Assembly (NCBI GenBank): GCA_044225505.1
Contig: JBGAIN010000007.1
Coordinates: 62,001-124,523, forward strand
Reading direction: 5' to 3'
DNA from: Limisphaerales bacterium
GTDB taxonomy: Bacteria > Verrucomicrobiota > Verrucomicrobiia > Limisphaerales > SIBE01
Length of the DNA: 62,523 nucleotides
Shown here: piece by piece, positions 12,617 through 55,542 of the stretch
How positions within the stretch are numbered: position 1 is the stretch's first letter
Layout: every line of letters starts with the position of its first letter
The notes under the pieces: generated by a model
What the model was told of the DNA's origin: nothing
Seen by the model: only the letters and a program-made list of their open reading frames with translations
Database searches by the model: none
Translations under genes and position numbers: made by a program

Positions 12617-12623
12617 TTCGGAA

Positions 12624-13244
12624 TCATTTGCGTTTTCGAATGAGCGCGACCATGACGCCTTGGATGACCAGTTCCTGCGCGGGGATCAGGTCGGGATAAC
12701 GAGGGTTCTCCGCCCGAAGAAACGGTTTGCCACGGTTGAGGAGGAATGTCTTGAGCGTGCTCTCGTTATCGATGAGAGCGGCCACCACATCGCCGCTACG
12801 AGGAGTCATGCCGTGTTCCAAAACCACGAGATCGCCGCTCATAATGCACTTGCCAATCATCGAATCCCCCCGAACCTCGAGCGCAAACGTACGCGGCGTC
12901 GGTTTGAGGCCGAGCGATTCGATATCGATAGACACGCAGCCTTTGGCTTCCTGCTTCTGGTCGTCGGCGAAGCCGGCCGGGATCGAGCCGTAGATCGGGA
13001 TGTCTGCCACTCGCTTGCGCAGCGACTGCAGCGGGGAAATAACTCGCAACGATCTGGCGCGCCCCGGCTCGGTGGCCAGGAACCCTTTCTGCCGAACCAA
13101 GCGCAAATGGTCGGCGACCGTGGTTAGGCTTTGAAACCCAAATCGGTCGGCGATTTCCTGGAACGACGGCGTGACACCGTTTTCACGCGTTTGCGAATCG
13201 ATGAAATCGACAATCTGGCGCTGTCGCTTGGTCAGTTCTGGCAT
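12624..13244 (-). CDS. lexA: LexA repressor
   Basis: Winged HTH (LTKRQRQI...PSFQEIA), Ala-Gly cleavage site GSIPAGF, catalytic Ser in VRGDSM and Lys in STLKTF. ATG at 13244; ends 7 bp before the polymerase GTG. Confidence 0.95.
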   Translation of the reverse strand: MPELTKRQRQIVDFIDSQTRENGVTPSFQEIADRFGFQSLTTVADHLRLVRQKGFLATEPGRARSLRVISPLQSLRKRVADIPIYGSIPAGFADDQKQEAKGCVSIDIESLGLKPTPRTFALEVRGDSMIGKCIMSGDLVVLEHGMTPRSGDVVAALIDNESTLKTFLLNRGKPFLRAENPRYPDLIPAQELVIQGVMVALIRKRK

Positions 13245-13287
13245 ATACCGTATATCCGTACGGTATTCCTCTACCAACCGCTGTCAA
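13245..13287 (-). promoter_or_regulatory. Sigma70-type promoter of lexA overlapped by a palindromic operator (putative SOS box)
   Basis: Minus strand reads TTGACA-N16-TACCGT. Perfect inverted repeat ATACCGTA-tatccg-TACGGTAT at 13245-13266 covers the -10 element and abuts the ATG. Confidence 0.8.
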
Positions 13288-14121: not shown

Positions 14122-14882
14122 TCACCGAGGGTCCGTGATCGCCTTACGCGCTCCGATTATTCGATAAAGCCGATTCTTAGTGATGCCTGAACGGAGAATA
14201 ACGATCCACGCCAGAACAGGTACGGTGAACCAAGCTACCGGCAACTCTGGAATGACCGTGATGAGAGCAGTGCCGAACGTCGTCTTGGAATCAAGGTCTT
14301 CCCCTACTCCACTGACAAAGACCGTCTCGTTCGGCCCAACGGTCCCAAAGACGTCCAAACGAATCGGATACGAGGTGCCAGGGATTCCCGAGACGTCCCT
14401 ACTCCACTGACAAAGACCGTCTCGTTCGGCCCAACGGTCCCAAAGACGTCCAAACGAATCGGATACGAGGTGCCAGGGATTCCCGAGACGTCCGTGATCG
14501 AAATCGTCGCCAGGGTCGCTCCCAAGTACGGCTGCGCCGGGGACAGGAAAAAATCGACCGTTCCTTTCACCCCAGCCGCGCCGTTCTCGATAGCCCGTAG
14601 CGCGCCGGGTCCTGCCACGCCATTGAAATCCATCGGAGGAGGCACCACTATCGCCGCCGCATTGGCCACGCGGGCCATGATTTCGTCGTAGGCAACCTTG
14701 ATCCCAAAACTAAACAGACCTTGCGGAGGTGTGGGATCAATGACGACTCCAACAGAGACGGTCCCGCCCGGTGTCACAGAATAGGTAGCCTGGTCAAATC
14801 GGACGCGGAATGTGCCTTGCGCCAAACTGACCCAAGGGAAGCTGGCAGCCAGCAGCGCGGCAAGAATGAAAATTCGCTTCAC
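14122..14882 (-). CDS. Signal-peptide, cohesin-like beta-sandwich protein with PEP-CTERM-like tail; frameshifted here by a 95-bp tandem duplication
   Basis: Removing one repeat copy joins ORFs 14304-14882 and 14122-14358 into 221 aa. The joined protein has a Sec signal, GGTVSVGVVID...GLFSFGIKVAYD...TLATISIT (cohesin-like) and VIPELPVAWFTVPVLAWIVILRSGITKNR (IPE + TM + basic). Its GTG overlaps the giant gene's TGA (GTGA). Confidence 0.7.
14302..14491. repeat. Perfect 95-bp tandem duplication
   Basis: 14302-14396 is identical to 14397-14491, with CC microhomology at the junction. The length is not a multiple of 3. Confidence 0.95.
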
Positions 14883-17800
14883 GGCGTCACTCCCGGTTCG
14901 GATTCGAATTCAAAAGTCGACGCATCACGGATGGCATAGGCCGGCGTTGCGCTCAAGCCAAGAGACCTTGGGCTCGATGCCCTCCTGCCGTCTCGCCCCA
15001 AAGTGGGGAAGTCGCTGCTCAGCGGGGCCAGCCTGGAGGACGATGTTAGACGCGATTCCAAGCGCTGCCAGACCAAGACAGGCTCGGTCACGCCAAGAGG
15101 AATCACACCACTGAGTTCGACGGAACGAATCGACCCGGGCCGGCTTTGACTTGACCGCGCCGGATCCGCGGCCGCCACAGGACTCGCAATAGCCAGCGGG
15201 GCGCTCCGGATGCCCAATGCCAGATTGCGATCCACTCGACTGCCGACGACTACCGATGGCGCCGCAACAGCCCGAGGGTCGCCGTGCGAGAGAACGCTCA
15301 CCCCTCGCTCAACTCGGCTACTCTCCAAGACGTTGGGCTGGCCAATCGCGCTAGGTCCGATGCCCGTCGGGAGAGGTGGCGCAGGCGCGAGCACGGTCAG
15401 ATAATGCTGTTGATAGCTCTGGATATCGACATTGTTAATCTGACCGTCGCCATTGACGTCGAGAGCGGGATTGTATCCAGGCTCCTCAATCTTAGTCCCT
15501 GAGGAGGCTTGGAACCGATACAGATCCAGGAAATCGACATCGCGGTCGCCATCGAGGTCTCCAAAGTAGCGGAAGAACTCCACCTGGGATGAACTCGCCT
15601 CGATGACCAGCTTGTTCCCGGCCGCATCCGTCAGTGACTCCGTCACCACCCGAGCCACGTAATTCCCATCGGCTAACGATCCGCCTTCCAAGCTCGGGAA
15701 TGTCCAAATCGCGGTATTGGTTGAGCGATCGAACTGGAACGTTAATGCCGAACCAAGCACTTGCTCGGTAGTGCCCAAATTGAAGATGTTCAAACTGGCC
15801 GCCGTTAGACTGCCGGAGACGTCTTCACTGAACCGCACCGCAATGGAACTAACCTTGGAGCGTTGCGCCTGGCCGTCATTGAGAACGATGCCTAAAATCG
15901 TGGGAGCCGTCTGATCGACAGTGATCGTTCGCCCACGGACCGTCGTCCCTTCCGTATCCGTAGCCTGGACGCGGAGCGTGTGTGACCCGAGCCCGAGGTT
16001 CACGCCCGTGAAGACGAACCGGCCATTTTCATCCGCGGTCGCGGTCCCATCGTTGAAACCGTCGCCATTCAGATCGAGTAGGACTGTCTGGCGCGGACTC
16101 GCCGTGCCTGCGAGCACGATCGGGTTGAAATTGGTCACGTCGTCACCCACGGTGCCCGAGTCGGTGCTCGGATCCAGGTGCACTTCCAACGGAGGCCCCG
16201 TGACGAATTCCACATTGCTCACCGTGACCGAGCTGTCGAGCGCGCCGAAGCCAACAAGGTCGAACAACAGCGTGGCAACCGTCCCTGGCGCCACCCCCTT
16301 CAAATCGATCGTCACTTGCGTGCTCGCGCCAGTGAGGTTTCCGCCGGAGGCTGCCACCCCTTGCACGTTGACCATCGAAGAGAATCGGATCGCGCCGCTC
16401 GCCTGCAGGTTCAGGATCGCGTCCGTATTCCTCAGACCGGGTAACGCTGGCACCAGCGGCTTTGCCGTTACGGTGTTTAGAAGTGCGACTTCAAATGCGT
16501 CCGGCGCGTTCAAAGCTCCCGCTTTCAGCGTGGGACCATTCAACGTGAAGCGCAGCGTAAGAGCGCCGTCGGGAACCGCAAATGTCTGAGAAAATTCCGT
16601 AAAGAGAAGCGGGCCTTCGTTCAGGATCGCACGGTTATTGGAAATTGATCCATTGCCAAACACACGCCATCCAAAGTCTGTTGACTGCGAATCTGTGACC
16701 GTGAAGCCGCCGTTGCGCAACTGAGGAGCAGCGGTGTTTGAATCTTGCGCCATCGCCTCGGCCAACAACTTGAAGCCCACGATCCCGGGGGCCATTGCAA
16801 AGGCAGGACGCCCAGGCTGCGCAAGCGCGATAAGGGCGGCATTTTCCCAGGCGGCATTTAGGATCAGGGCATCCAAGACGGAGGGCAGTCGCCTGACCCC
16901 GAGAGCTAAGCTGGGAGTCATTAGGTCTCCAGCAAACTGCATTGCCGAGACATGATCTTGATCTGGAGTCAGCAGGACAGAGGAGCTTCCTGTGACGAAC
17001 CAAGCCGACCCGTCTGCCCGTGTCTCAACCAGTCCGGAAAATCCGCTGAACTGGCTGGTGAATCCGAGCAAGTGTCCCATCTCATGGACAATGAGCGTCA
17101 ATAGGTCGTAGCGCCCGCTCTTCTCCAGAACATCGAGGGAGCCGGTGTGGTCACTGTTCCAGGAAGTCGGGTCCGCGAACCAGCCGTGTCCGTCTCCGTC
17201 CTCGTCGTAGACAAGAAGGCCACGCGCAGGCAATCCATCGCTACCCAATTCAGTAATGACAGCATGGCCCAGCTCACCGGCAGGGAGATCTACTGGCACC
17301 AGTTCGAGAGTTAGTGCCACAGGACGACCCAAGACCCGCGTCCAGAGCTCGCGCGCGAAAACCGTAATGTCCATCGAAGCCGGTGGGGCTTGTTCCGCCG
17401 GCCCGGGCTGAGGCAGGCCGCTCGCCTCGGATACCGAAGTTTCGGGTTCAGACTGCAGTTTCGGCGGCAGCGGCAGGAACTTGGCCGGCGGCACATAAGG
17501 CGACGGCGGCGGGACAAGTGATTTATACGCGCCTGGCTCGATCGGCAAATAGTTGCCCGGAGCTAAGAAAGGGGTCGGCGTCACCGCTGGCGGGTTGTAG
17601 TTTCTGAACTCCCCAGGAACAAGTGGAAGGTAGTTTTGAGGCGGCATCGGGGGAGGTTCGGGCGGGACGACGTTGTTCTTCCACTCGCCCGGAATGATCT
17701 CAAGGAAAGCGGGTTTGGCTGGCGTTAAGGGAGCGGCGGGCGGCAGAAGATCCGCTGGGCCGTTAATGATCCGCGCGGGATTAACACCCCAATCGTCCAG

Positions 17801-20800
17801 CATACTCCTGAGCGCGCTCTTGCCGCCATCCGCCGCGGGAACTGGAGTCGTAGAAGCTGTCGCCTGGGTCGGAGCAGAGTTCCCTTTGATCATGGCGTCG
17901 ATTTCCGCGCGCGTCGGCTGCTCCATCAACGATCGAACCACATCCGGTTCGAGCGGAGGCGCTGGATAGGGTGACTCCGGGAAAGGTCCACGCGTGGGAA
18001 TGTAATCGGTCTTTGGCCCAAGAATCCGCTCTGTCCCTCGTTGTGTAAACAGGCGCACCTTGAGCTTGCCGGCGTCCAGTCCTTTATCGACCAGGTTAGT
18101 GACGACGGCATCAATGGCGCCGCCCTCAGCGCCCGTCCGCTTCAACAGCGAAAGTCCGAAGTGCCCAGATGAGTCTGTAATCCGTCGCAGTTGGCCACTG
18201 GCATCGGTGACAATCGTCCCGGCGGCGGCCACAGGTTTATCCGGCCCGAAGAAGCTTGAATGTTTGACGTTGATCCCCAAAGGGTCGCCGCGCCCTTGAT
18301 ATCCAAACATCCGCCCATGCTCATCAACGACGAAGATGAATTCCTCTTTCGGCCCTAATTTGGTGACCACCGGTGAACCGTCTCGCGCCCAAGCGAGTTT
18401 GCCGTCTTTAACAATGATTTCAAAATGAGACAGGATGCCGCGCGCGGCAAAGTTGGCGGCTGGTTTCTTGAACTTGGGCACGGGTTTGCCATCGGCAATT
18501 GCTTTCGACACTATCTCGACAACTTCTGCCCGACTGTAGTATTCGAACCAACCAATAAGCCCAGGGGTACGATCCACTGGATAGTATTGATAATCTGAAT
18601 AACCAAACACTTTGCCTCCCGGCCAACCATTAGGTCTTTCACCGAGACCACCTCCAAAACTGATCTTTCGTCCATAACCCATCGGCGCGTAATTCGGATC
18701 GCTCAGTTGTTCACTCTCGGAATACCTTAACAGGTTCTTGAACGGGGGCTCGCCCGGCGCTCCTCGGTTGGCACCTTCAATCGCCGCCGCGGCCTCAGGC
18801 TGGGCTGCCGCGGGTGAAGCAGCCGCTGCCTCCTCGGAAGCTGCTGCTGCGGGAGAGGCTTCTGGCAATCCCGGAGGCTCGTATTCTGGAATGGCCAGCG
18901 CATCCGCCTCAGCCACCATCCGCGCCCTCAGTTGAGCGGCCTCTTCCAGTCCGCCCTCGGCTTTGGCCACAATCGAAGCGGCGACTCCCTTGCCATTCCC
19001 GCTGGCTCGATCGACGATGGCCGCGGCCACGCCAAGGTCGTAGGATCGCATGACTTCCCAGATCTTAAGCGGACCAATGGTACCCGCTCCTTTCGCTGCT
19101 ACTCGAAGGCCTTCCCCGAGATCCACGACCTTCTGCGCCACGCCGTAGGCCGACATCAAAGAATCGGTCGCCGCAGTCGCGGCATTTTCGAGCACACGGT
19201 CTATCATCGCCTCAGCCCCTCGGCCGACGAATCGGCCGACCCCAACTAACCCGCCACTCCCAAACACACCGCCGCCCACCTCAAGACCCGCCCGTAAGCC
19301 TTGAACTACCGCAGATTCGCCGACCAGCGTTCTGACGGCACCTACTCCACCAGTGCGAAATTCAGCTGCCGCGCGTGCCCCAAACCCAAGCGAACCCGTG
19401 ACTTTTCCGATGGTCGCCTGGGGAGCGACGATCATGGCGATGTTGAAGAGGGCTTCTCCGAAAGCGATTGAATCTCCCGCGGCGGCGGCGTCCCACGCCT
19501 GGACGAAAGGCGCCACAAACATTCCGTATCCTAAGGTCGCGGCGGCTTTTTTAGTAAAGTCCCATCCGCCAGTGCTCTTGGCCGCAAGCTCTTGAGCCAT
19601 CTTTCCAAAGCTGCTGATCGCCTTGTAGTCTCGCGGACCGAACCACATATTCAGTGCGTCCCAACTCCCCAGTGTCAAAATCTCGCCAATTCCCAGTAAG
19701 AACTTGCCAGCCCCGACCACCAGACCGGCTCCAATTCCGAGGGTTGAAATTGCCGCGTTGCCAGCCATCTTCAGGGCGCTTAAGCCCGCGCTTAAAGCGA
19801 AACTCCCTGCCGAGAGCAAAGTGTTCGCCGCCGTTCCCGCAAAACCCACCGTGCTTCGCAACGCTGGCATGATCAGGTTCTCCACCGTTGGACCGAGAGA
19901 GTATTGACCGCCAACAAATCCGCTCGCGTCTTGAGAGACGTCGTATTTCACAAAGCCCAACGACAAGAAGCTTGTCCAAAAGGCGGTATTACCTTCGGCC
20001 TGTGCATCCAAGAATCCAGGACCCTCGCTGCTCAGCCCGGTCGGGTCGGTCAAATTAGCGACGTTATTCCCAGCATAACGATAGGCGTTGTAGTCGCCGG
20101 AACTCATCCCGGCAGGATCGGCGCTAATGAACCTACCTAGGCGTGGGTCATAATAGCGGGCGCGGTTGTAATACAGACCCGTATCCGCGTCCAGCTCTCG
20201 CCCCGCGTAGAGGTATCGAGTGGGAAGCGTGTTCGCCAGGCGGCCCAATAGATTCCCGAACGAATCGATCAGGAAATGATCCAATCCTTTCCCGTCGTTC
20301 TTGGCCGTATCACGAATCGTGCCCTGCGCGTCCGCGAGCAGCCACAAAACCTGCCCATTGCCGTCGTCCTGGGCCAGCACTTCGTCCGTGCCGGGCCCGT
20401 GCAGATAGGCGCGTGCGGGAGCTGACGGCAACAGACCTTCGCTTCCATCGCCGTCGCGCATCTCCAGAGTGATGTTTTGCCCGTCGTAAACGTAATAGGT
20501 AATCGGCGCCCGTCCGGCTGACGTTCCGGTCTCAATCGTCGTGCTGGATACACGTCGATTCAGGCTGTCGTATTCATAACGGATGGTCCGTTGGATCTGA
20601 CCCTGGTTATTTCGCACTCGCACCTCGGTAAGCCGATTGCGATAATCCCAATCAAACTCTTCCGAAACACCATCAATTCGGAAGGTCAATTTCGTCAAAT
20701 TCCCTTCATTATCGTAATCATAATTCGCTAAGTCATCGCTGATCACTCGATTATCGTCTCCTCGGGTGACACTACCTTGGCGGGAGGAGACCAACGGATT

Positions 20801-23800
20801 GCCCGCCGCATCATACGTATAGGTCTCCGCGCCGAAAGCGGGGTTGCTGTAGCTGACCGAGACTAACTGCGAGCTCTTGTCGTATGAAAATGTCGCTGTC
20901 CCATCGATGTCCTGGCGCAGTTTGACGAATCCATTGCGATCGTAAGTAAAGGCGTAACTGTTGATGGCCGAAGTCTGCCCCGAACCGCTATGGGTCAGTG
21001 TGGCAATGTAGTTTGCCGCGTCATAGGTAATCTTGGTCGCAACCACGGCCGAACCCCCGGATGCGGAGTTAAACCGGCTAATATTGGAGAACTGGAACAA
21101 ACCCGGCTCGTAACTAAACTCAACGCGCTTGGGTGTGACAAACGCTCCTGTTTGGGTGATAGCGGTCAGCCGGTGGTTGGCCGAATCCAAAGTGTACGTG
21201 TTGGTCACCGCCGGGGTCTGATTGTTAATGCTGAGCGTTGCACTCGTCACCACTCCCATTCCATCCAGACCCCACTTTACCTCAGTGCGTCCGTAGCCCG
21301 CCGGTCCAACAACCACTTCCGAAGTACGCAATCCACGCGCATCCTCCGTATAAGTCAAAGTGCTCGTCCACCGACCGTCACTTATCGAATAAAGCCGGCC
21401 GACACTATCATAAAGCGACGTAATCGCACCCGACCCGACCCAGGTCTCGCTAATCCGCTGATTCAAACCATTGTAACTATAGCGTATCTCACGGTTGTTC
21501 CGATCTACATAGCTGATCACATTTCCTGCGGCATCATAGCTGTAGCGGCGCGTGCCACTTTTGGTCTCCTCAGTCAGACGCCGATTCGCGAGGTCATAGG
21601 TATACCTCGTCACCGTGCCTTCTGGATCACGCACCCTCGTGATATTGCCGGACCCGTCATACTCCGTAAGGGTATGGCCGCCTCTTGGATCCAACACGTC
21701 TTGAACGCGGTTGAGACGATCGTAAGTATACTTCGTGGGATTTCCCTCCGCGTCGATCGTCTGGCTGATGTTGCCCACTTCGTCATAGTCTGTGTGAACG
21801 GGGTAGCCGAGCTCATTGAAATCGTCTGTTCGCCGATTCAGGGCATCATAGCCGTAGCGATGGTGAGTTCGACCGCTATCCATTGTCTTCAAGTTACTTG
21901 CCAGATCGTACGTATAATCTGTCGCCTCGGCCTCGCGCTTTTCTGTCCGCACCACCCGATTGGCTCCATCGTAAATCGTTTTATCCGCAACGCTTCCGAG
22001 TGCGTCCGTGTGGGTGACGATAAAAAGACCGTCTTTGTGTTCATAGGTCCAGGACGACTGCAACTGCCCTCCGTTGCCTGGCGATTCGATGATCTCAGAA
22101 GTCAGTCGGTTCGCCCCGTCGTACCCACGAATGGTGTGATGCTGGAGTGCGTTGAACATCTCAACGAGCCGCCCAGCATCGTCGTAAACCATACGCTCCG
22201 TAACCCGATGGGGTTCCGTCTGCGTTCCCACATTGTGAGTGACAGCGATGAGATTGTTTCTACGGTCGTAGGTGTAATCAACGGCAAACGCTTCCCCGCG
22301 CCCAGGAACCTCGTGCCGCAGATTACCCAGAACGTCATAACTGAAAGTTTCCACGATGGACGGCAAGCCTGCGCCGGTGGCAGTAGCGCGGCTAGTGGTA
22401 TGCCCCAGGTTATCTCGGGTGTAAGTAATAGTCTGCGCCGAGCTGCTGAACCCGGTCTCTTGCTTAAGCCACCCCATGATGTCGTACGATTTCGTCGCAG
22501 TCACCGTTTCTGGAGTTCCTACTGCTAGCTTTTGCGTCAAGAGCAGATTACGCGCATCGTAGGTAAACTCGTTACGGGTCCCACGGCGATCGGTGACGGT
22601 TTTTCGATTTCCGACCGCGTCGTACTCATACAGATCGCTGTTGCCCCTCGCATCGGTCTGTTTCACCAACCGATTAAGCCCGTCCATGATTTGCGTCGTT
22701 GAGTTCTGAAGCGGATCGGTGACGATAATCACGTTTCGATGTCCAGGATAGCTCTGACTGATTACATTCTTCATCGGATCCATGGATGTCAGGAGCCGGT
22801 TCCGCTTGTCATAGGTGTAAGTGGTGACGCCGAACGGAGTCGTATGCGTTAGGGCGTTCCCAAACCGATCGTAGGTCCAACTCTCCGTCTCGCCAGCCGG
22901 GTCAGTGTGGGACTGTTTTCGATTTAGCTCGTCGTAAGTGAAGATCTCGGTGAAGCGTATGCCTCCTATACCCACATGCCTGAGCAGATTGCCCTCGGTG
23001 TCGTAATCGTAGCTTTCAGTCAGAGTCTTGGGTGAGGCGTCAGTGCCTCCCGGTGAAGCCATGCTCCGGATGCGGTTTAAGGCATCGACGACGTAGGTTG
23101 TCACGTAACCTGATCCACGAATGTCGGTGAAACGAATCCGATTCCCGGCCAAGTCGTAATCAGTAGTTTCTACAAGCTCGATCGGCGCTTCCGGAGTTCC
23201 CCCGACCGATCGCTTCTGCAGGACCAAACCTCGAGCGTCGTAGTCAAATCGGCTTGTAAAGGCGGCACCCCGCGCATCCTGATACTCGATTTGATGGCCT
23301 GCGGGATCGTAGACATATCGTTCCACCGCATCTGGCCCAGGCTGCTCTGCGGTGCCAGTTGGTGTCGTCACTTTCAGGAGCCGATTCTTGTAATCGTACT
23401 CATACTTCACGGTATAGAAATCCCCTCGCCCATCCGTTATCGAAGTCAGATTTCCAACTTCATCGTAGGTATGCTTGGTGATGTTCTTCTCCGCGTCCGT
23501 GATCGTCCGAAGCCGATTTCCTCCATCATAAACGAAAGTTGCCACGTATTTCTGCCCTGTCTCGTTCTCGAATGGTCCCGTTTGTTTGGTCAGATTTCCG
23601 ACCGCATCATACTCAAAGCTCGTCACGTAGCCGGCAGCGTCGGTAGTCTCTTTCACGCGCCCGAGGCTGTCGAAGGCCATGGTCTCGACCCGTTCCGCAC
23701 TTCCAGCAGAAGCTTCGTAGGTGATTCTTTCCAGATTACCCTCCGCATCGTACTGGAAGCTGGTGACATTTTTGAGTGGATCGACTTCCTTAGTACGGTG

Positions 23801-26800
23801 GTTCAGGGGATCGTATTCGTAAGTGGTGGTGCGGCTAAGCGAATTCGTCTTAGATATCAAGTTTCCGATCGCATCATAATCGTATTTGGTAATTGCGGGC
23901 GGACTGGAAATTTCGGGAGAACCTGTCGGTTGGGTTGTCATCTTCAACCGATTAAGGAAATCGTAAACGTGAACGGTCTTATAGTAATCTCCTCGAGGAT
24001 CCACGGCGGTGAGGAGATTGCCCGCGGCATCGTAAGTCATCTTTGTGACCGCAGCAGAGCCTGGCTTAGTCGAGGAACCGGTGGGTTGACGCCGCTCGAC
24101 GAGCCGATTGAATACGTCCCAAACCTGGATGACGTCATAAAAAGTCCCGCGCGGATCATGGATCGTGATCACATTGTCCGCCGCATCGTACTCGTAGCCG
24201 GTCACGATCGCTTTACCAGGGATGGATGGCGATCCTCCCGGCTCCGTCATCGTGCTTAACCGATTCAGGGCGTCGTACTCGTAGGAAACTGTATAATAGG
24301 AGCCGCGGCCATCTTGATAACTCTTGAGATTCCCGATCTGATCGTAGACGAAAATTTCCGTTGCGACTCCCCCGCCCCCCAAACCCAAGGTTCGCGTCTT
24401 GGAAGCAGCGCGGTTGAGTGCATCATAAGTAATGGTCGTGCGATAATTCCCTTCACCTTTGAAGGTCCGCGGATCGATGGCTTCCGTGAGCATGCCAACT
24501 TCATTATAATTATACTCCGTCCTGTTCTTCTCGGGATCCGTGACGATTCGCAGACGATTTAGCGCATCCCACTCTTGGACCGTCGTATAGCCGGCTCCAA
24601 CCTTTCCCCCGGCGCGAGGAGTTGTGATTGTCTTAACGTTGCCCACCGGATCGTAACTCCACAGGGTAACGCCCTGAAGCGGATCCGTTTGACTGATGCG
24701 ACGATTCAATCCGTCATACTCATAGCTCGTCAGAAACTCGGTATTGCCTTCGTCTCCACCACCTCGCGGGTCGATCGCACCGATCAAGTTACTAACTCCG
24801 TCGTATTTGAAGATCGTGACCCCTTTTTCAGCATCGGTGCGCCGGATGGTACGATTAAGCGCATCGAAATCGAAGATCGTCGTAACTGAGCTGTCACGCG
24901 GATCAGTGAGCGATATTAGATTGCCGGCCTTGTCATAGTTTGAAACGACATGGTAGATCGGACCGGGAGAGGACGGGGTCCCAGTGTTTCTGGAAACGCT
25001 TTTTAAGCGGTTGACTCTGTCGTAAGTCTTAGTTGTGTCGTAGAACGCACCCCGTGGGTCATGGATAAGTAGAACATTACCCACGAGGTCATTTTCATAA
25101 GTGGTTTTGCGTTCAACCGGTGTCCCCTTAGCCTCCACGACGCCGGCCAGAAAGTTAAGAGTGTCATACGCGTATTCTATTCGGTGCTTCAGGGGATCTA
25201 CAGTCGCTGCGATTTTTCCGAGCGGAGTGTATTCGGTGATGTATGGCGCAGCTTTATTGGAACCGGCGGCGAGCGTAACGGTAGTTTGCCGGTTGAGCTG
25301 ATCGTAGGTATAAGTGACGTCGTGCTCAGCGCTTTGTGGGCCGCTAACGCGAATCACATTGCCGACCTGGTCGTAGGAATAGCGGGTAATCTGCCCGAGA
25401 GCGTCCGTGGTCTTTTCGAGTCGGCCTGACTTATCGTACTCCATCTTGGTTTGATATCCCGCACCTCGGGAACCCTTCGCCCGCGGATCAATCACTAAGG
25501 TCAGCTTGTTCAACTCATCGTATTCGTAGATCGTGATACCACCTTCTGCATCGATCATTTGAGTTTTCCGTCGGGCGCCATCGTAGGAATAGGAGGTCCG
25601 GTATTTGGTGCTCCCGGGGTCACCCTTGGCTCGCGGGTCGATCACAAATTTGAGATTCCCCACTTTGTCATACCCCGAGACCGTGATCCCACCGACCGCG
25701 TCGGTCTTTTTGATCAGCCGGTTCGCGGCGTCGTACTCAAAGGTCGTCCGATATTTCGAATCATTGAAATTTCCACCGCCCCGAGGGTCTATTTCCGCGG
25801 TAAGGTTACCCTCCCCATCATAGATGCGAAGAGTGACTCCATCCTCGGCATCCTTAATGTAATTCAGACGGTCCATCCCATCGTAATGATACTCGGTGAG
25901 ATGCTTCATCGGATCCAGCATGGTCTCGAGCTTCCCAGTCGGGGTATAGGTATAAACGGTTTTGGCCTTTTCCTGACTTTCTCGCTCAAAAAGGCGATTC
26001 CGTTTGTCATAGGTGAACTTGGTCACATATGGCGAATTCGAATCCGCAGCCTGGGTTGACTTCTTGAGATTACCAGCCGCATCATACTCGTTGCGGGTGG
26101 TAAGTTTTTCCGGGGCGTCCTCCTCTGCCACCTCGTCCAAAATATTGTAGATATACGTGGTGACGTGATCCCCTCCGATATTGTTCTTCACCGTCTTCTT
26201 CATCAGGCGGTTAACTTTATCGTATTCAAACTGAACCACCTCGACGGTCGGACCCTTCTGTTCTTTAATTCGACCGCGAGCGTCCAGCGTCAGGATGATC
26301 GAAGCCTTATTAGGCAACACGACTTCCCGCTTCCGATTAGCTTTGTCGTATCGAGTTTCAGTCACTCTTCCGATCTGGTCGATTTCGTAGCGGACTAGAC
26401 CATCCTTGTTGGAGACCTGCGCCGTGATATAGCCCTCCGGATCCTTCGTGAAGAAGTAATAACCGTACAGTTCAGTAGGAACGTCATAGGACGGAGTGAA
26501 TTGTCCAGGTTCGTAGGCGTATTGTGTCCTTAGGTCTAAAATCCCTTTCGCATCGATCCGTTCAATCACACGGTTTAACGCGTCATAGGCGAGTGTGGTG
26601 ATATTCTGGTTCTTCTCCTTGCTATCGGTCTGTTGTATGAGATTACCTGCCGCGTCATATTTGTTAGTCCAGGTATAAGTCGTGGTGCCTGTGGGATCAT
26701 TGGATATCACCCGGCGCACCGTGGGCCGATTGAGAGCGTCATAATCCAATTCCGTGCGGTGTTTAGACTCATCGGTCATTGCTCTGATATTGCCGGTGAG

Positions 26801-29800
26801 ATCATCATTGTACTCCTGCGTTCGAGTGGAACTATCAGCGAAGGCAGTCTCGGTCAGGCGCCCGTATTTGTCGTAAGTGTATTTCGTCACGTTCCCGATC
26901 GGATCGGTGCTAGTTTTAAGCAGGCCATTTGAGTAATAGGTGTAAAGAGTGGCCGAGAGCCCGGGATTACCAGCGGGAGCTGGGCCCTGCACAGTCACGG
27001 AGAGGATGTCGCCGTTGTTTTTGTCGACCTCGTATTCGGTGGTCCGATTCTCGCCGTCGGTGTGCTTTTGGAGACGGTTAAAGCGCTCTGGCAAATAGAC
27101 CCAGCTTTCCTCGCCAATCGCGTCTTTTCGGTAGATTAGATTGTTAAACGCATCATAGCGGTATTCGACCTCGTTTTGTTCCTGATCCTTTTCTTTGATG
27201 ATCAGCCCATTCGCCTGCCGTTCCGAGGTCCGGACAGCGCCATTGGCATCTTTCGACGAAAGGAACTGACCAAAGGGCGAAAGTCCGTAGCGAATCGTCT
27301 CTCCGCGCACGTTCGTATATTGAGCGATCGCTTCGATCTTCTTTGGATCGGTGCTGGTCACCAACTGTTTCACTATTGGAGCGCTAGCGGGGCGCGCCGT
27401 GTTCTTTGGATCGAAAACAGCGAACATCTGTGCCGGCGTTACCTGATACGACTTTCCATCCAGCCGCTTCCCACTCTGCATTCGACCAAACAAATCGTCG
27501 TAAACGTAAGTCTCTCTGAATTTCTCGGACGGTAGCGGCTCCGGTTCCGGCCACGGATTGCCGCGTTTTTGCACCTCAGAGGTCATCAGACCTGGAAAGC
27601 GTGGATTTTGATAAAAGAATGTCCGCGCGCTGGTGTCCGGGTCTGTAATCTTGGAAAGGTTTTTTCCGTCGTAGTCAAACTTAGTGACCCGGCCGGCGGG
27701 GTCAGTAATGGTGGAGACATGATCCCCTGAGTAGATGAAGGTGCTGAACAAGTCGCCAGGAACGACAATCTTAGATAATTTGTCGCCTTCGTAAAGATAC
27801 CGAGTTTCATTGCCATTCCGATCCCTCATGATAGCCAGCTTGCCCTTGTTGTTGAACTCGTAGATGGTTCCATCGAGCATTCGACGCTCAAAAGTACCGT
27901 CCTCGCGTTGGCGCAAGGTTGAGTAATCTGCCGAGGACAAAGCTGTAAACGGATCGCCTTTGCTGCGAGGGGCCAAGTAGATCTGCTCGTTGCCGTTTCC
28001 ATCTACCAGCAGGACCCCGCCGTCTCCCGAGTAGATTTCGAAATAGTTTGCCAAACCCCATCCCGCCCCAAACATGCCGTCCTTGGAGTTCACAACCGCG
28101 ACAGGTTGCGTTGCCGAGAGCATCCGTCCGACGTATCTCCCATCGCGCAGGGTAAGCAGACCGTATTCGAGCGTGAAAGTGTAAAGGCCAGTCTTGGCGT
28201 CCGTAAGATCGATCTGAATTCCTGCTCCGAAGGGCAATTCTGCACTTAAGGTCGCAGGCGGACTAAAGAAGTTCTCGCCACCAGCTAGACCAAGGGCCGA
28301 GGCCTCCTCAGCGCTGATGCCTTTGGCGTGATAGACCTTGTCACCTAACCGAGCCGTCAGACGAATTACAATCTTCGAGTCGCCGGACGGCTCTTTCACA
28401 GGATTCGCTGCGTCGCCGGACGCCGTACCGAACCCTGCCAGATTGAAGTAGAATATAGGTCGAGCCTCAGCCCGGGTCGAATCATAGTAAATGCTCAGCC
28501 CGCGATTTTGGCCCAGCGTGGTGAACCCAGCCAGTTCGTGGAGGTCGAGCAGTGCTCCGGTATGAAGCTCCACTGAGGAGTGGCTGCCGGCCTCTACGGT
28601 GAGCGGACCATTCGGGAAGCCTAAGAGCGTGGGTTGTTGATTATACGGATTGCTTACCAGCAGCAGTCCCGCGCCTTGAGGCGCAGGCAGCGAACTCAGA
28701 TCACGCACCAGGCGTCCTCCGCTTAGGGGCGCGGGGCTGATCTCCAGGCCGGGGGTCGGCGGCGTCCCAAAAGTGTAGGCTCCTGAACTATCCTTGTACC
28801 AGCGGTAAAGCGACTTCACGTTGACCCCGGGCTCGTATACATCGATTGGGATCGTCGAGAGGGGGCCTTCCAACAAGCGGGAAAGGGAGCCGGGAACCGG
28901 CTCCCTCTGCAGTTGGCTAAAACCGGAGACGGGCTTTCCTTGAGCCTCGGTTTCGATCGTGGCAATCATGGCCGCCGCGTTATAGACAAAGACCTGATTC
29001 TTTGCCTGCATCGCGGCGGCCAACATGGTGTTCCCGAAGCTCAGCGCGATGCCTTCGGCAAAGCCGTTGATGATTGGCATGGTCGCCGCAACCAATCGAG
29101 GCCGAGTCAAGGGATTGGAGGGATCCGCAGGATCAATTTTGGGCATGCGGATAATGCCCACGTTGGAGCCGGCGGAAACTTCCACCCCAATGGTTGTGCC
29201 GAGGAGTTCACTAATGACCTTAGGTTCCAACCCCAGCGATCTCAACATCTCAAGGGTATACGTGTAGTTCGGATTGTAGGTTTGAATGGGTTGCCCGCCG
29301 TTGGTCACCGCGGGGTCATGCTTGGGATCCGTCTGCACGAACTTGTTGTATCCGGTGACAAACGCGAAAGCGGGATGCTCCGAGATCTTGCCCTTAGTCA
29401 GCTTTTTCAGGACCTCACTCAGTGAATTGGCCGGTAGATACACAATGCTCGAGGCATTGCTCACTCCGAAAGCCTGGGTCGGTCGGCCCTCTACAAGGCG
29501 CGGTATTTGACCATAGCCAGTCATATCGACTCGGCCGACCACGGTATGAATGGCTGGCAAATCGGCCCGCACAATCTTGCGCTGAATGATTCGGACTGCG
29601 AAGGCATCGTTCATCCGATCTACCAGCAGCATAATATTGGGGTCCTCGGTCGCAGTGATATCATACGGCTCGTCCCCTACAGGAATTACGCCGGTCGCAG
29701 TGTTGAAGCTGGGCAGTTCCCCTTTGGCGACGTTTGTGTCAACGACGAGAACCGCGCCTCGATCCGCTCCCAGCTGGCCCATCAGAGTTTTTCCGGGCGC

Positions 29801-32800
29801 TGTCACATAGACGCGTTCTCCGTCGGCACTGATGGCCAGGCCGCGCAATCCTAAAGGCGCCGGGGAAACCGACAAGGTTTTGACTACTTTGTTATAGGTG
29901 GGAGAGAACGGATCGATATCAATCACATAGACTGTGCCAGTCGCCGCGACCCGGTCCACCGGTGCCCGCGAGTCGGAAACAAACAGATAACGCCCTGACG
30001 CCTCAGCGGCCGCGTCAAATGGCCGCGCCCCGTTCGGCAGCTTGATCACTTGAATGCCAGCGGTGACAGGATCCGCATCAATCTGCTGGAAGACGACTGT
30101 ATCAACGACGGCGATTCCGCCGCCATTCTCCAGCGGCACGTAAGCCCGTGTCCCGTCCTTGGTCAACGCCGCCTGGCGCGGGCCGCCGCCTGCGATGTCC
30201 TGCAATTGAATGCGGGCCACCTCCACTGGGTCGGGCGCCTGCGTCTCCTGTCCGTTGACATGGGTTGGTGAAAAGTTACCGAGATCAAACACCGAGAGAC
30301 TGTTCGCACCACCATTGCTGCCGAAGACATAACGTGGTTGCGCGACGAGCTGCACCGGGTTGCTGGTAATCAGTTGCAGTTTGAACTTACCGTCCAGAGG
30401 CAAGTTCATCTTCCGTGTTACTGTGATGAAAGAACCTCCGACTTGCGCGCCTCCTGGAAGATCAACTTTAAGCGTGTTCGGATCGGCTAACGTCAATGCT
30501 GTTCCCTCGATGATCGTATCTGGTCCACCCACGTAATTGACGGTGCCATCGGGGTTGAAGCTGTCTCTGCCTCCGACTTCGATGGTCACAAACAGATCGG
30601 CAGCCTGGCTGCCGAGCGTGCCTCCGTCTCGCCACGGGTTACTAAGAGTGAAACTCTCTCCCGTCAAAACCAACTGCGGTTTTAGGCCATTCCCTTGGGC
30701 CACGAAGCTAAACGTGCCCTTCGATACCGATGGAGGAACGATATCCCTGACCGTAAATCGCGGTGGGAATGGAATGGCCACGCCTTGAATCTCACCTGGT
30801 AAGACTTGGACCGTCGACGTGCTGACTGGGCGCAAACCTTGAGGTTCTATCAAAGCCGCCACCATTTTGTAGCCCAGACTAGCCACTGCCGGGACCAAGA
30901 CATCACCTATCGGACCTGTGATGGCATAGTACTTAGGTCCGCTTCCACCTCCGCCCAGCGCCGTTTGCATTGAGATTGTTTTCCCAAACGCCGCTTCGCG
31001 ATCACTTACCCCACCAAACGCCTGCACTGCGCCAACAATGCTCGGCGCCATCGCAAAGGCCTGACCCACGGCCGCAGGGATAAAGAAGATGTTCGAACTT
31101 GCCCCGGAATGCGCCCCACCAACCCCAAGATTCGGACGCACCGGCGTCGGTCTGGTATTCCCAGTCAACGATGCTAACTGAACGCCGGCGCCTCCAAGGT
31201 CCTGCGGCGCCGTCCGCATGATGCCGTCCGGCCCAACCACCATTTTGTCCAAGACAAGCCAAGCGATCTCATCGGGTTGGCCAAATCCAACTTTCACAGT
31301 GACCGGTTGGAAAAGCCAAACTTCACGGCCCGGCGAATATCCCGCGGGAGCAGGCATCTCCACGCTAAGCGCGTGTTTGGTTGTGCGACCACCCCAGTCG
31401 ATATTAAAGCCACCTGCAAAGTCAAACCCCTGGGGTGCGGCCAGCGGCATCGCATTCTGCCCCAGCGGTGTGATGGTAACTCCCGCGGTGTCCTCAAAAG
31501 TGCCCGCCGGAACTCCCACAGAATAATTACCGTTCGCGACGACAGCGCCGGCTGGCCCGACGGTCGATCCATTGGCTACGGACGTGGCGATAATGATATT
31601 CGCCACATGACTTTGCCCCCCATTAACGACGGTTACCGCCACCTCGCCGCCTCGCAGCGCTGTGAGCAGACCATTAATCGTAATCGTCGCCACCGATGGG
31701 TCGCTCACAAAATAGCGGGTGCCAGTTTGCTCTGTCGTTCGATACTCCGCATGATCTTCAAAGCCTTCCCGAACAATGAACTGAACCTTCTCGCCCGGAC
31801 TGAGCGCGTAGGCGTCGGGGAAGAATTCAAGAAGTCGAGTATCGGGCAAGCCGACCGTTACAGCGGTTGCAGCGACGAAACCTTGCGCCGTCACGATGAC
31901 GGTTGTAGATCCAAGTCCAGTTCCAAGAATCGTCCCAGAGGAAGAGACGGTTACAGTCGTGGGTTGCTCGCTGCGGAAGCTAAGCAAGTTCTTCGGAACG
32001 GCCTGCTCGGTCCCGTCGGAGTAACGAAAGACCGCGTGCAAGTCGAGCGTTTGGCCAATCGTAAGAACGGGGTCACGCGGAGAAAGGACTAATTCCACCG
32101 GCGATGTCGGAAGCACATTAATGCTGATCGACGTGGATACAGATACGGACGTGCCATCGTCGGCCGAGAGATCAAATGCTGCCGCGCCGCTAAAACCTTC
32201 TGAAGGAGTGAAGATCAGAGTGCGTCCGTCACCCGCGAGTTGGATATTTCCGTTCCGGACATTGCTCGTCCTAAACAGCAGTGAATCCCCCTCTGGATCA
32301 GACGCGAGCGCGCTCAAATCGATGGTCAGCGGGAATCCGCGACCGGTGGTGAAAGTCTGAGGCTTGGGGACAGGAGCTTGGTTCGCCACAAAACCGAAAT
32401 TAGCGATTAGGTTCTGCTGGTCGACGAAGTCGACATTGCCGTCGCGATCGGTGTCAGCGCCCGCGTTGAAGATTGGATTCCCCAAAGAAGAACCAACGGC
32501 CTTTTCCATTGCTGCGCTATCGATTCCATCAACGCGCTGGTCGCTGTTGACGTCGCCGGCCAAGTAAACCTCGATCGTGTACGATCCCGACGTCTGACCG
32601 TTCGCGCCTTGGACCTCGATTACGTAAGGTCCGGGTTGATCGAGGGCATAAAGACTCCCACTTCGACCGCTCTCCACCTTGCTCGCGATGCTTGACTCGC
32701 CGAGAATTGTGGCCGAAGCCGGGTCAAGTCCCGTCGTGCCCCGAACCTCAATCCCGAGGATGACTTTGCCGTGGGCGGCCGTGTTGAGTTCGCGCTCGGT

Positions 32801-35800
32801 AAGGACGAAGGCGTAACGATCCGTTTCGCCAGCCTTCAAGCTTTCCGCAATTGGGAGGTCCAAAAACTGCCGAGTCGCGCCTAGCACAGACTGAACAGAA
32901 TCGGTTCGAGCGACAGCCCCATTCGCATATGCAACCGAAAGACTCTCGCTCGCACCAGGTGCGACGATTGCGCTCAACTCGTGCCCCGAGCTCCCGGCAT
33001 AGCCGTAAACGGTTCGCTCTCCCGTGCGAACGTTCGTAGTGGATTGTAGGTTGCCGCTACCGTCGTAGCGGTAAACGAGCTGGGTGCCGTCAGGCGCTAG
33101 CACCGCGGTAATTCGACCGGCAGCGTCGCGTTGGAAGCTAAGGCGCTCCCCGTTGCTCGCAGTTACGCCACTGTCGCTCCAAATCAGATGCTCACCATTT
33201 GCGCCCGAAAGCCCGCGCAGTTGACCGCGTCCGTTGTAGTCGTAACGTGTCCCATCCGTGGCGACCAAGGAGAACGCGGCCGACTGGTTCGCATCCGTGA
33301 CGAACCCTTTCAGGTTATAGGGCAGCCCCGTTCCGACCATGTAAAATCCAGCACCGGCTTTCTCCAGCAGACCGCCCGTGGTCAGCAGCTGGTACGTGAC
33401 TCCGGAATCGGCTGTCCAGCCTGGCCGGTAGAGAGTGGTGCCGCCAACGGAAACCGCCTGCGGCGTGAAGGAAAAACCCACGCGTTGGCCAGAAGGCAAG
33501 TTGATATACGCGCGCGTCCCGGTGGTATACGGCGACACGTCGCCCGCTCCGCCGTCAGGCGGCAACACAACGTTCGTAGCGAAATGGGGATCAACTCCCA
33601 GCATTGCCCATCCGAAACCGAAACTGCCGATGACACTCTGCTCAGCGCTTGAATAGCGTCGGGCCACGACAACACGAACTCCCCCAAGCGTAACCGTTAG
33701 ATCGGTTGTGGATCTCTCAAATGCAGCTGATTTGGTTGCGGAGCTGATTTCAAGGACACGCGAAACGGCTGTGACCCGGCGGGCCATGTCCTGCGCCGTC
33801 AGACGCAGGACGTAAGCCCCATTGTTCAATCGAGCCGGATCAAGCTGGGCCAATTCCCCGTTGATCGCAGTTCGCCCCTGAACGAGCACCTGAAGGGAGT
33901 CACTTCCAAGGGGGCCGAATTCCAGGCGATAGAAATCAAGATTGGCGTCAAACACCGCGCCGTTGACGCTCACCGGGTTGCTGATGTTCGCGCCTTCTGC
34001 GGGCGAAGCAAGTTGAACGACTGGCGCTTGTTGATCCGCCAAATCGCGCACCCGCAGGTCGGCCGTGGCCGATCCGCTGAAGCCGTCAGCATCTCGCGCC
34101 GTGGCCGTGATGGTGTATTGCCCGGGCGCCGACGGTGTGAAGCGCACTCGTCCAAAGTCATCTGCAGATTGCACCTGACCGTTGATCGCGATTGTAATTC
34201 CGGTGATATCAGCCACGCTTGAAGCCCGCGTCTGAATCAGGACAGATTGTCCGCTCGGTACCGGGAAGCTGGGCGTGAACTCAATTGAGACGCTTGGAGG
34301 AACAGGCTCTCGCGATACGACCACGCGCAGGGCGCGACTTGCCTGTAGTTCGCCATCACGGACCGTAAATCGCAGATTTTGCTCGCCTGCTTGCGTCGGC
34401 AATGGCGTCCAAACGAGCTCTCCAGAGTCTTGGTTAAAAGTTGCCCCAGAAGGTAAGCCCGTCACCGCATATTCAAGCTTAGTGCCTTTGTCGGGATCCC
34501 GCGCCGGAACGATAAAACGAAATGGTGCGCCCACCAGGACGGTATGCGCGCCAAACGCATCGATGACGGGCGGCCGATTCAAGTTGAGCACCTGCAACGA
34601 AACGGTGCTTTCAACGGAAGCACCTTGCGGATCAGTAGCACGAAACCGGAGCGAGTACTGGCCGGCAGCGTCGTAGCTTGGAGTCCATTTAAATCCGGCC
34701 GTCGTCGAATCGAATTCAGCACCTGGCGGAAGCGTGCCAACATACTCGTAGCTAAGCGAATCGCCGTCGAGATCGCCGGCCACGACCGTAAATCCGAATT
34801 CGGCGCCTTCTTGTGCAATCAATCCTGGAGGTGTCGCGAAGCGTGGTACTGTGTTGGAATTGGTCACGGTAATTGTGAAAAGAATTTGCCCGCTGGCTGC
34901 TCCATCACTTGCGACCACTGTGATGGCGTATGTTCCCGCTTGCACGAAGTCAGGGGTCCAGAGCAAGCGGCCCGAATCGGGGGATAAAACGGCGCCGCGT
35001 GGGAGGCTCGCGCTTGACCAGGTCAGCTTATCACCATCGGGATCGCTGCCGGCGAAATCAATGGCGAGAGTCTGCTGTTCTGCAATCTGCCGATTTCCTG
35101 GGGACTGCAGCGTTGGAGGCGTGTTGGTGGCTCGAACCGTCAAGCTCACCGTTCGTTGGTCCCCCAAGGCGTTCGCCGTGACTCCATTGCCGGAATCTAT
35201 CACACGGAAAGTGATCGGATAGCTTCCGGCGTTCTCAGCCGCTGGGGTCCAGCGGAATTCGCTGACGCCATAAACTTGGGTCGGCTTGAACGTTGCCCCA
35301 GGAGGCAACCCCGTAGCCGAGAACGTAAGTTGATCCTCATCCAGATCCCGGGCTCTGACTTGGAAAACGATTTCCTTTCCAATCAAAGCTACCTTGTCAC
35401 CAAGGTAGTCGAGCTGCGGCATTGCGTTCGGAAGTTCAGCGGTTAGGACAAAGGTGTATTCGCCAAAAAGGGACTTTGAGGCATCGCCATTGCCATCGTC
35501 GGCAGCTCGAACAGTGATCGTGAAGTTGCCACGGTCCGTTAGGCCCGGATTCACCGTAATCTTCCCGTCACCATTGCCAACGCTCACGAAGTTTCCAAAC
35601 TGCGGAAGGCCAGACACCGTCAAAATCGGAGCATTCCCATCGGGATCGACGGCGTGCACTGGTATCTCCAGAACCTGGCCAGCTTTGACGGTTTGATTTG
35701 TCACCGGGCTCACGACGGGGACGAGATTGGCGTCCGCGACTTCGATCTGGATCGTGATTGAATCGTTGAGGGGTTGACCTGTCTCGTCCCCATCATCGGT

Positions 35801-54527: not shown

Positions 54528-55383
54528 ATGAAAAAACGTTCTCCGGTCTCCCGCAGCGGTCGTTTTGCTGAGGGACCCAGTGCGGATGTCGCTGAGTTCA
54601 CGCAGTCGGTTTCGTTTGATTGGCGGTTATGGCGGCACGACATTCTGGGATCCATGGCGCACGCTGCCATGCTTCGCCAGATCGGCTTAATCACAAGGGC
54701 CGAGGAACGGGCGATTGTGCAGAACCTGGATGCGATCGCGGAGGAAATCGCCGAGAAGAAGTTTCGATGGCAGCCCGAGCTCGAGGATGTGCACATGAAC
54801 ATCGAAGCGGAATTGACGCGCCGGACACCAGCGGGCGCCAAGCTGCATACGGGCCGGTCGCGGAACGACCAGGTAGCGTTGGATGTTCGGCTTTGGCTGC
54901 GCGACGAGATTGTCGAGATGGTGCAGGAAATCCGTGGGTTGCAATCGGCGCTGGTGACATTGGGGACCCGGAATGGGGATGTTGTGATTCCCGGATACAC
55001 GCACTTACAGCGGGCCCAACCGGTTTATCTGTCCCATCACCTCCTCGCTTATGTGGAGATGCTCGAGCGGGACCACCAACGCCTCTCCGACTGTTTCGGG
55101 CGTGTCAACGTCTGTCCACTCGGCGCCGGTGCGCTCGCCGGCTCAACGCTTCCCTTGGACCGGGCGATGGTCGCGCAACTCCTCGGGTTCGTCGATGCGA
55201 AAGGCCGACCGCAATTGGCGCAAAACTCGATGGACGCCGTGAGTGATCGGGATTTTGTGATTGAGTTTTGCAGCGCCGCCGCGGTCATTTCGATGCACCT
55301 TTCCCGGCTGGCTGAGGACGTCATTCTCTGGGCCACGACGGAGTTTGGGTTTATCAAGCTGACCGACGCCTATACGACGGGAT
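54528..55383 (+). CDS. argH: Argininosuccinate lyase, 3' part lost at an assembly gap
   Basis: EDVHMNIE, LHTGRSRNDQVALD, PGYTHLQRAQP, PLGAGALAGS and NSMDAVSDRDF. Sequence stops at AYTTG, just before the expected GSSxMPxKxNP signature, at the n at 55384. Confidence 0.93.
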
Positions 55384-55384
55384 N

Positions 55385-55520
55385 ACGCGCCCGAGAGCGC
55401 CAAAGAAGCAGAAGAAACATCACCCGGTCCGGTCGGATCCGCAGACAACAGAACTCTCGCCTCGAGCTGTTCAAGCTCGAAACGCCTCAGCGAATCGGAA
55501 CGCGTAGCCGGTGATTTCAA
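55385..55520 (-). CDS. 5' stub of a second LEPR-XLL protein, paralogous to the giant gene and cut by the gap
   Basis: TTG 55520 gives (M)KSPATRSDSLRRFELEQLEARVLLSADPTGPG, versus (M)RSPATLSGSRKRFELELLEARVLLSADPGGAG at 52978. Confidence 0.85.
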
Positions 55521-55542
55521 CGGACAAATCGGCAAAAGGCAT

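Follow-up and report, generated by a model that had tools for sequence, protein, structure and literature searches.

Described cohesin-dockerin systems and the locus analysed

Cohesin-dockerin anchoring is established in Gram-positive cellulosomes. The stretch of DNA analysed here (the window throughout: 62,523 nucleotides of a Limisphaerales bacterium of the phylum Verrucomicrobiota, assembly GCA_044225505.1, contig JBGAIN010000007.1, positions 62,001 to 124,523) carried a two-gene cassette: a giant LEPR-XLL/RHS gene, whose product had two dockerins, and a small partner gene, whose product had a cohesin-type fold and a PEP-CTERM-type tail. The pair is real and conserved, and it is probably a new form of cohesin-dockerin anchoring in which the giant is held through its terminal dockerin (see below).

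The pair was compared with the closest described systems: (i) single-cohesin anchoring scaffoldins (SLH in Acetivibrio and sortase in Ruminococcus; PMC11557425) likewise have one cohesin plus a C-terminal envelope anchor and a partner ending in (X-module)-dockerin, but here the host was Gram-negative, the tail was of the PEP-CTERM or RFYR type instead of SLH or LPXTG, and the partner was a signal-less LEPR-XLL giant with RHS instead of a glycoside-hydrolase scaffoldin; (ii) the hypothetical 'planctosome' of freshwater Planctomycetes (PMC6461901) is also a non-cellulosomal cohesin/dockerin system of the PVC lineage with a proposed surface complex, but its anchor is a 2,210-aa (amino acid) lamin-tail protein and its clients are peptidases, and no PEP-CTERM anchor, giant or RHS cassette is described in the available text of that source; (iii) bacterial teneurin-like/RHS polymorphic toxins (PMC13018210) share the YD shell, the bipartite DPxG autoprotease spacing, the variable domain after the site and the long adhesin-like N-terminus, but their C-terminal product of ~15 kDa on average is followed by an immunity gene, while here it amounted to 179 kDa with a peptidase-like motif, Ig and dockerin and had no adjacent immunity gene; (iv) the dockerin-type giants of Omnitrophota (bioRxiv 10.1101/2023.11.21.568195) are giant extracellular proteins of the PVC superphylum with dockerin-like modules as well, but their dockerin/CBM35-like repeats are internal and their secretion locus is type II-like, with no separate cohesin anchor gene described in the available text; and (v) PEP-CTERM/exosortase sorting (PMC4960237) combines an exosortase in the genome with a substrate that has a signal peptide and, towards its end, a PEP-type motif before a hydrophobic helix and a basic cluster, as in the present family, the motif of the copy in the window being degenerate (IPEL). 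Cohesin and dockerin domains are also mentioned within PT-TG toxin architectures in the accessible part of PMC13483458. A cohesin as a PEP-CTERM-sorted domain, or a pairing of dockerin, cohesin and PEP-CTERM, was not found in print (main texts, with little subscription literature); LEPR-XLL had incidental mentions only, and the first 300,000 characters of Zhang et al. 2012 (PMC3482391) mentioned neither dockerin nor cohesin nor PEP-CTERM.

The cassette contained the following elements:

14879..52978, minus strand: giant LEPR-XLL/RHS gene, a single open reading frame from 52978 to 14879 (12,699 aa, 1.35 MDa), translated through a 9-N gap at 37333-37341
52886..52939, minus strand: LEPR-XLL N-terminal motif (aa 14-31), scoring 17.6 bits with NF012209, whose cut-off is 17
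32402..32560, minus strand: dockerin 1, internal, duplicated EF-hand (motif at aa 6808; Pfam PF00404, 38 bits)
15571..15913, minus strand: Ig-like (Big_5) module, X-module-like, lying before dockerin 2 and conserved together with it
15404..15562, minus strand: dockerin 2, terminal, of the DRDVDFLD type that accompanies cohesin family A (motif at aa 12473; PF00404, 31.4 bits, Pfam dockerin at 15416-15562)
14122..14882, minus strand: small partner gene encoding 221 aa, with a cohesin-fold domain (aa 22-178) between the signal peptide (aa 1-21) and an IPEL-hydrophobic-basic tail
14122..14253, minus strand: degenerate PEP-CTERM-type tail of the small protein
14302..14493: exact 95-bp tandem duplication interrupting the small gene

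The preliminary description of this DNA had spoken of a roughly 1.3-MDa protein that lacks a Sec signal and a membrane anchor, has a dockerin-like module on each side of a DPTGL site and is overlapped at its stop by the next gene, and all of this was borne out: both dockerins exceeded the PF00404 cut-off (22.9 bits) with DPTGL between them, no Sec-type hydrophobic region was found at the N-terminus in a hydrophobicity scan, the giant was without a clear membrane anchor because the strongest 19-aa hydrophobic window of the whole protein reached just 1.75, and the GTG start of the small gene at 14882 overlapped the TGA stop of the giant (GTGA).

Predicted cohesin fold of the small partner

The small protein belonged to a family (family A) of 348 representatives at E <=1e-10, repeat proteins among them, and all its named homologues and named loci were from Verrucomicrobiota. 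The intact paralogue on contig C65 of the same genome, 51% identical to the domain in the window, was modelled in place of the window's own protein, giving an AlphaFold model with a pLDDT of 95.4. All 41 of the Foldseek matches listed for this model were cohesin entries (best E 3e-9), and in a search independent of Foldseek (VIA) 20 cohesin entries ranked first (Z 15.6-10.9; the best with a root-mean-square deviation of 2.6 over 139 aligned residues), followed by a pilin as the first non-cohesin (Z 10.4). Judged from the model of its paralogue, the small protein thus has the nine-stranded jelly-roll fold of cohesins, as the preliminary description had proposed. Sequence comparison gave fainter signals: the C65 paralogue matched the Pfam cohesin model with E 0.071, and the sole match of the family profile in a sequence search of the PDB was a cohesin (E 0.43).

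Across 117 aligned members, the outward positions of strands 3 and 6 were conserved (S37 98%, G39 94%, K85 85%, T/N87 87%), and those of strands 1, 2 and 9 were variable (commonest residue <=36%). Strands 3 and 6 are what we take to be the dockerin-binding face of cohesins, and this presumed docking face would accordingly be conserved in family A; the indication is only indirect, because the facing of the strand residues was deduced from hydrophobic alternation.

As assembled, the small gene was interrupted by the 95-bp duplication. Among four public runs compared, X1 and X2 (from two studies) had contigs crossing the site that precisely skipped the 95 bases, one 1,519-bp X2 contig covering the whole small gene, and X3 and X12 had no contig there. 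Contig C103 of the same assembly started exactly at the boundary of the 95-bp unit. Because of these two observations, an assembly artefact is the most likely explanation of the duplication; with the second copy removed, the frame encoded 221 aa with IPE at aa 179. A real inactivation of the gene was rejected for the strains of X1 and X2.

That contig opened (G000:C103:1-260) with a near-identical cohesin paralogue represented by its C-terminal half, identical for 140 bp and diverged in the tail beyond. An ECF-sigma-like gene came next, and the giant partner of the paralogue was not assembled adjacent to it.

Pairing of cohesin and dockerin genes

In the genome of origin, a cohesin-type gene lay directly downstream of five of the seven dockerin-bearing frames (C311, C65, C292, C36, and C121), the exceptions being C139 and the contig-end fragment C44. 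The cohesin beside the dockerin gene of C121 was of the Pfam type, and a paralogue of the small gene on C232 directly preceded a LEPR-XLL giant. No glycoside hydrolase was present among the Pfam matches of the giant in the window, the sole one of the seven frames scanned, and its small partner had a single cohesin, not the several of a cellulosomal scaffoldin.

The comparison was extended to 400 genomes of the order and to metagenomes. Family A had a strong match in 18 of the 400 genomes (two weak matches, in G350 and G135 with E ~5-8e-4, were left out of the count), and its members were divided into two groups by their tails: (i) PEP-tailed members were directly followed by a LEPR-XLL start in 10 of 11 cases, the 11th being at a contig end, and the three partners readable to their end (G286, G151, and G165) had 10,794-11,095 aa with two dockerins each; and (ii) RFYR-tailed members lay one or two genes before secreted proteins opening with the same Ig+dockerin module, several of them with RHS repeats. 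At 11 metagenome loci, a LEPR-XLL start followed in eight (two sequences being identical) and a porin plus a dockerin gene in one. Cohesin genes lay upstream, downstream or convergent relative to dockerin genes. Overall, the Ig+dockerin module occurred together with a cohesin-fold family in 35 genomes, the dockerin module alone in 7, a cohesin alone in 2 and neither in 356, and the gene pairing expected from the preliminary description is thus conserved; the corresponding Fisher p of 7e-41 is overstated, because kin genomes are not independent.

At six sets of loci (L001, L005/L025, L021, L030, L036, and L107), an RFYR-tailed cohesin gene was accompanied by an outer-membrane beta-barrel-like gene and a gene for a secreted Ig+dockerin protein, often with RHS; this beta-barrel may belong to a route of export or anchoring.

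Two cohesin families and two dockerin types

Inspection of the genes downstream of Ig+dockerin matches brought up a second family (family B), whose model (pLDDT 92.5) was closest to cohesins (Foldseek E 1e-6; VIA Z 14.2 to a cohesin, with non-cohesin adhesin domains at Z 11.4). Families A and B had no detectable similarity in hhalign (probability 0.6%). All 22 other genomes with family B, 10 of which had contributed to the family B alignment, fell within the 42 genomes having the Ig+dockerin module.

Dockerins adjacent to family A (13) and those adjacent to family B (22) fell on opposite sides of one branch (support 100/98) with no crossover; locus L036 was excluded from alignment A4. The recognition residues were mostly F-L beside family A and D/E-L/R beside family B. 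A cohesin-dockerin tether holding the giant by its terminal dockerin is therefore likely, since the pairing was conserved and the two cohesin families matched two dockerin types without crossover.

The F-L signature found beside family A cohesins sat on the terminal dockerin, and the first-loop recognition positions of the internal dockerin were occupied by small residues in every one of 10 examples (the window and nine homologous giants). To judge from these residues, the terminal dockerin would be the better candidate partner of the cohesin.

Frame and swappable slot of the giant

The giant was ordered as beta-helix repeats, PA14, Big_5, 11 CARDB modules, propeller-like regions, He_PIG/cadherin-like Ig, and dockerin 1, and thereafter RHS core, variable domain, HEMGH motif, Ig, and dockerin 2. 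Its RHS part and the adjoining cargo were composed of the following:

20033..28081, minus strand: RHS/YD core (~aa 8300-10982; PF05593, TIGR01643, TIGR03696)
20033..20158, minus strand: autoprotease set R10941, D10954 (DPAG) and D10978 (DPTG-L)
18029..18451, minus strand: toxin-like variable domain, FVVDEHG..KHSSFF..AAAG..DSSGHF (aa ~11510-11650)
17069..17083, minus strand: HEMGH zinc-metallopeptidase-like motif (NF038122, E 5e-6, below cut-off; Peptidase_M10, E 0.015)

Homologous giants shared ~7,250 N-terminal residues (~50% identity) and ~500 C-terminal ones with a differing middle, so a swappable slot was placed at about aa 8010-12080 with a dockerin near each of its ends. These giants comprised (i) those of G286, G151, G165, and C65, with both dockerins and no RHS core; (ii) those of the window, C139, and G091, with both dockerins plus RHS; and (iii) those of G126, G202, and G106, with RHS and one dockerin visible per contig. 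The RHS region appeared as a gap in alignments of the giant to its RHS-free homologues; other members carried unrelated beta-rich cargo in the slot. Since the RHS-free homologues retained both dockerins, the RHS cassette is swappable cargo, and the two dockerins belong to the frame and not to the cleavage site. The idea of one dockerin for each cleavage product, put forward in the preliminary description, was not supported, in view of the same four giants and of the lack of F-L in the internal dockerin.

The sub-case of binding built on that idea, in which the cohesin binds both dockerins and each RHS cleavage product is displayed on a cohesin of its own, is unlikely. It would account for the presence of one dockerin on either side of an intact autoprotease, and two residue pairs speak for it: the second-loop F-V of dockerin 1 in the window resembles the F-L of dockerin 2, and the G-I pair of dockerin 1 in the window recurs in the dockerin of C292, beside which lies a divergent member of family A. 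However, both dockerins were kept in the four RHS-free homologues, and the F-V pair occurred in none of nine homologous internal dockerins.

Two paralogous giants, at G000:C65:41785-46167/16709-42148 and C232:12534, each fell into two frames, with the break close to the N-terminal part.

Autoprotease and variable cargo

The giant had an intact DPxG-x20-DPxG site with DPTGL at aa 10978-10982 between the two dockerins; the first Pro of PxxxxDPxG was replaced by Val. In the bacterial teneurin-like protein BiTLP, the catalytic residues R2103, D2116, and D2140 show 13/24 spacing (PMC13018210), and self-cleavage of the giant at DPTG-L is plausible because R10941, D10954, and D10978 have the same spacing. 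Such cleavage would yield products of ~1.17 MDa (N-terminal) and 179 kDa (C-terminal). Enclosed C-terminal products of teneurin-like proteins average ~15 kDa (PMC13018210); the 179-kDa product exceeds this more than 10-fold, so that the dockerin end, if not more of it, has to be outside the shell.

Beyond ~200 shared residues after DPxG, the slot of the window had no alignment to any of the other five homologues with RHS before the HExGH region, and such variation past DPxG is the pattern of polymorphic toxins. Over 93 aa, the variable domain shared 40% identity with the C-terminus of a WXG100-type-locus protein from a Nocardia plasmid, where a small gene follows; the domain had no named family in Pfam or NCBIfam and no match in two protein searches or the PDB, and in the Atlas it fell into unnamed clusters with a low recognition score. 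Three weak matches in 300 genomes of the phylum were rejected as wrong-strand or unrelated frames. About 1,050 further residues followed the domain, and no immunity gene was adjacent to the giant, downstream of which lay the cohesin gene and a response regulator. On these sequence features, the chances that the variable domain would be toxic are about even.

C139 and G202 shared a variable domain (35% identity) different from that of the window. Theirs (G000:C139:15229-17850 and G202:C249) held a GSFxTDxxTFAxRH stretch and had no Pfam match; the stretch presumably resembles HxGH nucleotidyltransferases.

C-terminal tails, exosortases and location

The small protein had hydrophobic windows at aa 1-21 and 182-198 (from hydrophobicity only), followed by a basic tail. 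The preliminary description had given the small gene a signal peptide, a cohesin sandwich and an IPE-transmembrane-basic tail; the sandwich stood by the fold of the paralogue and the layout by the 221-aa frame, but the tail itself was degenerate and matched no model. At the level of the family, the PEP-CTERM character was evident: 17 of 19 homologues ended in [VI]PEP-hydrophobic-basic (the remainder being one with another C-terminal domain and one fragment), Pfam PEP-CTERM matches occurred in 8 of 23 family rows, and the homologue P0010 passed TIGR02595. The genome also contained two exosortases (PF09721, both over cut-off), which agrees with the sorting signal read into the tail, and ~20 canonical PEP-CTERM tails among 29 pattern matches (by eye). 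The tail of the C65 paralogue was degenerate as well (IPEF, no model match), and many family A cohesins had, in place of PEP-CTERM, a tail that is labelled RFYR-type here.

A recurring C-terminal domain (S-x-D-L-x-x-W ... FYR) ended 28 frames of the same genome by a crude pattern and was present at L071, L073, L079, and L081-L085; it had no Pfam or NCBIfam name and is a candidate second sorting signal of Verrucomicrobiota.

The tether could operate as follows. The small protein would be exported by Sec and its PEP-CTERM-type tail handled by exosortase, so that a single cohesin may be presented beyond the inner membrane, the cell surface or an attached polysaccharide layer being its most likely site; for the small protein and the giant alike, we infer a cell-surface location. 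The giant would be exported, perhaps directed by its LEPR-XLL start, and, lacking an anchor, it would stay in place because its terminal Ig+dockerin binds the cohesin in a Ca-dependent manner, as fold, gene pairing, and type matching suggest. It would represent a conserved frame with a swappable slot, here filled with an RHS shell, an intact autoprotease and a variable toxin-like domain, and after self-cleavage at DPTG-L the 179-kDa C-terminal product, keeping dockerin 2, would stay tethered.

Binding may also occur away from the surface, with the cohesin released into the floc or biofilm matrix, where it cross-links the giant to exopolysaccharide, or serving as a periplasmic folding or export partner. 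Both exosortase genes lay among polysaccharide-type genes (by eye), near-identical DNA was present in bioreactor and activated-sludge runs, PEP-CTERM proteins are reported to be necessary for Zoogloea floc formation (PMC9012009), those of Akkermansia had a higher abundance in intracellular fractions than in outer-membrane ones (PMC4960237), and many family members had the RFYR-type tail, not PEP-CTERM. Nevertheless, a sorting-type tail of some kind was present at the C-terminus of every family member, as would fit an anchor role, and the one-to-one pairing with giants fits a dedicated tether; a matrix or periplasmic role is accordingly quite unlikely.

Six secretins were encoded in the genome, none tied to the locus of the giant; separately, a 4,328-aa frame (G000:C260:88460-101443), of unusual length for a secretin, had a secretin domain at its end.

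Weighing of the proposed tether

Several results weigh against the cohesin-dockerin tether. As to the small protein, Pfam PF00963 was weak in 5 of 23 family members (best E 0.0097, below the gathering cut-off), the small open reading frame of the window and its tail had no match in Pfam and NCBIfam scans, and the tail was degenerate (IPEL, with prolines inside the hydrophobic stretch) and without a PEP-CTERM model match. As to the pairing, the RHS paralogue on C139 (5' end missing) had no cohesin downstream; one metagenome locus, seen twice, had a cohesin gene with no giant within 6 kb; G091 (95% complete, with a two-dockerin RHS giant), G106, and G012 had no family A or B match; and an 11,302-aa giant of G070 had no cohesin neighbour, another dockerin gene of G070 having one. 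Family B was originally defined from 11 of the counted loci, and type matching and co-occurrence can stem from operon co-inheritance without binding. For export of the giant, the genome gave no VipB match and no HlyD over the type I cut-off.

Another reading is that the modules do not bind at all: the dockerin-like loops would bind Ca as stabilisers, and the cohesin-fold protein would be a small adhesin that is co-regulated with the giant and inherited together with it. Many adhesins contain jelly-roll sandwiches, pilin/adhesin domains reached Z 9-11, and 7 of 42 genomes were dockerin-only; yet two unrelated-looking cohesin-fold families and a Pfam-type cohesin (C121) each lay beside dockerin genes and the presumed docking face was conserved, which makes the absence of binding very unlikely. 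The small gene lies directly downstream with overlapping stop and start, like the immunity genes of teneurin-like toxins (PMC13018210), and might on that account confer immunity to the RHS toxin domain. This reading was rejected as having next to no probability, given the conservation of the gene beside RHS-free giants, mostly upstream of them, and the signal peptide, cohesin fold, and sorting tail of its product.

With the tether retained, a wider reading can be put forward tentatively and stays rather doubtful: Verrucomicrobiota of this order may possess a typed cohesin-dockerin code, comprising at least families A and B and, in one genome, a classical cohesin, by which giants of >1 MDa without a signal would be tethered to the envelope through exosortase-sorted or RFYR-tailed single cohesins, one class of these giants being a surface-tethered RHS weapon whose variable domain is non-terminal, docked to its producer after self-cleavage and without a neighbouring immunity gene. 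If true, the typed code plus the tethered RHS weapon would constitute an undescribed display or delivery mode for polymorphic toxins. To our knowledge, PEP-CTERM proteins have few defined molecular roles, and a role as receptor would, if true, be the first defined job of one. The two-gene cassette offers a small pair (~160 + 175 aa) bearing both on the cohesin-dockerin holding of giants in Gram-negative bacteria and on the final location of exosortase substrates; a cohesin tether would offer a retention mechanism for anchorless LEPR-XLL giants, and two matched cohesin/dockerin types would give new orthogonal binding pairs for protein assembly.

Other observations in the window and related genomes

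A second LEPR-XLL gene start was found in the window at 55143-55900 (minus strand), with an upstream region 78% identical over 238 bp. It broke off at a single N (55384), where it was joined to a truncated argH-like gene, and it is probably the mis-scaffolded 5' end of another giant paralogue. RNA runs contained just ~5% of the words of the stretch. An 822-aa frame (G001:C49:7744-10209; L004 and L100) lay upstream of a cohesin gene and had no Pfam match; its C-terminal end carries what we take to be an AHH-like nuclease motif. At 8300-13277 (minus strand) of the window, a lexA-like gene was followed by a gene for a 1,438-aa lookalike (by eye) of a Y-family polymerase/DnaE2-type polymerase fusion.

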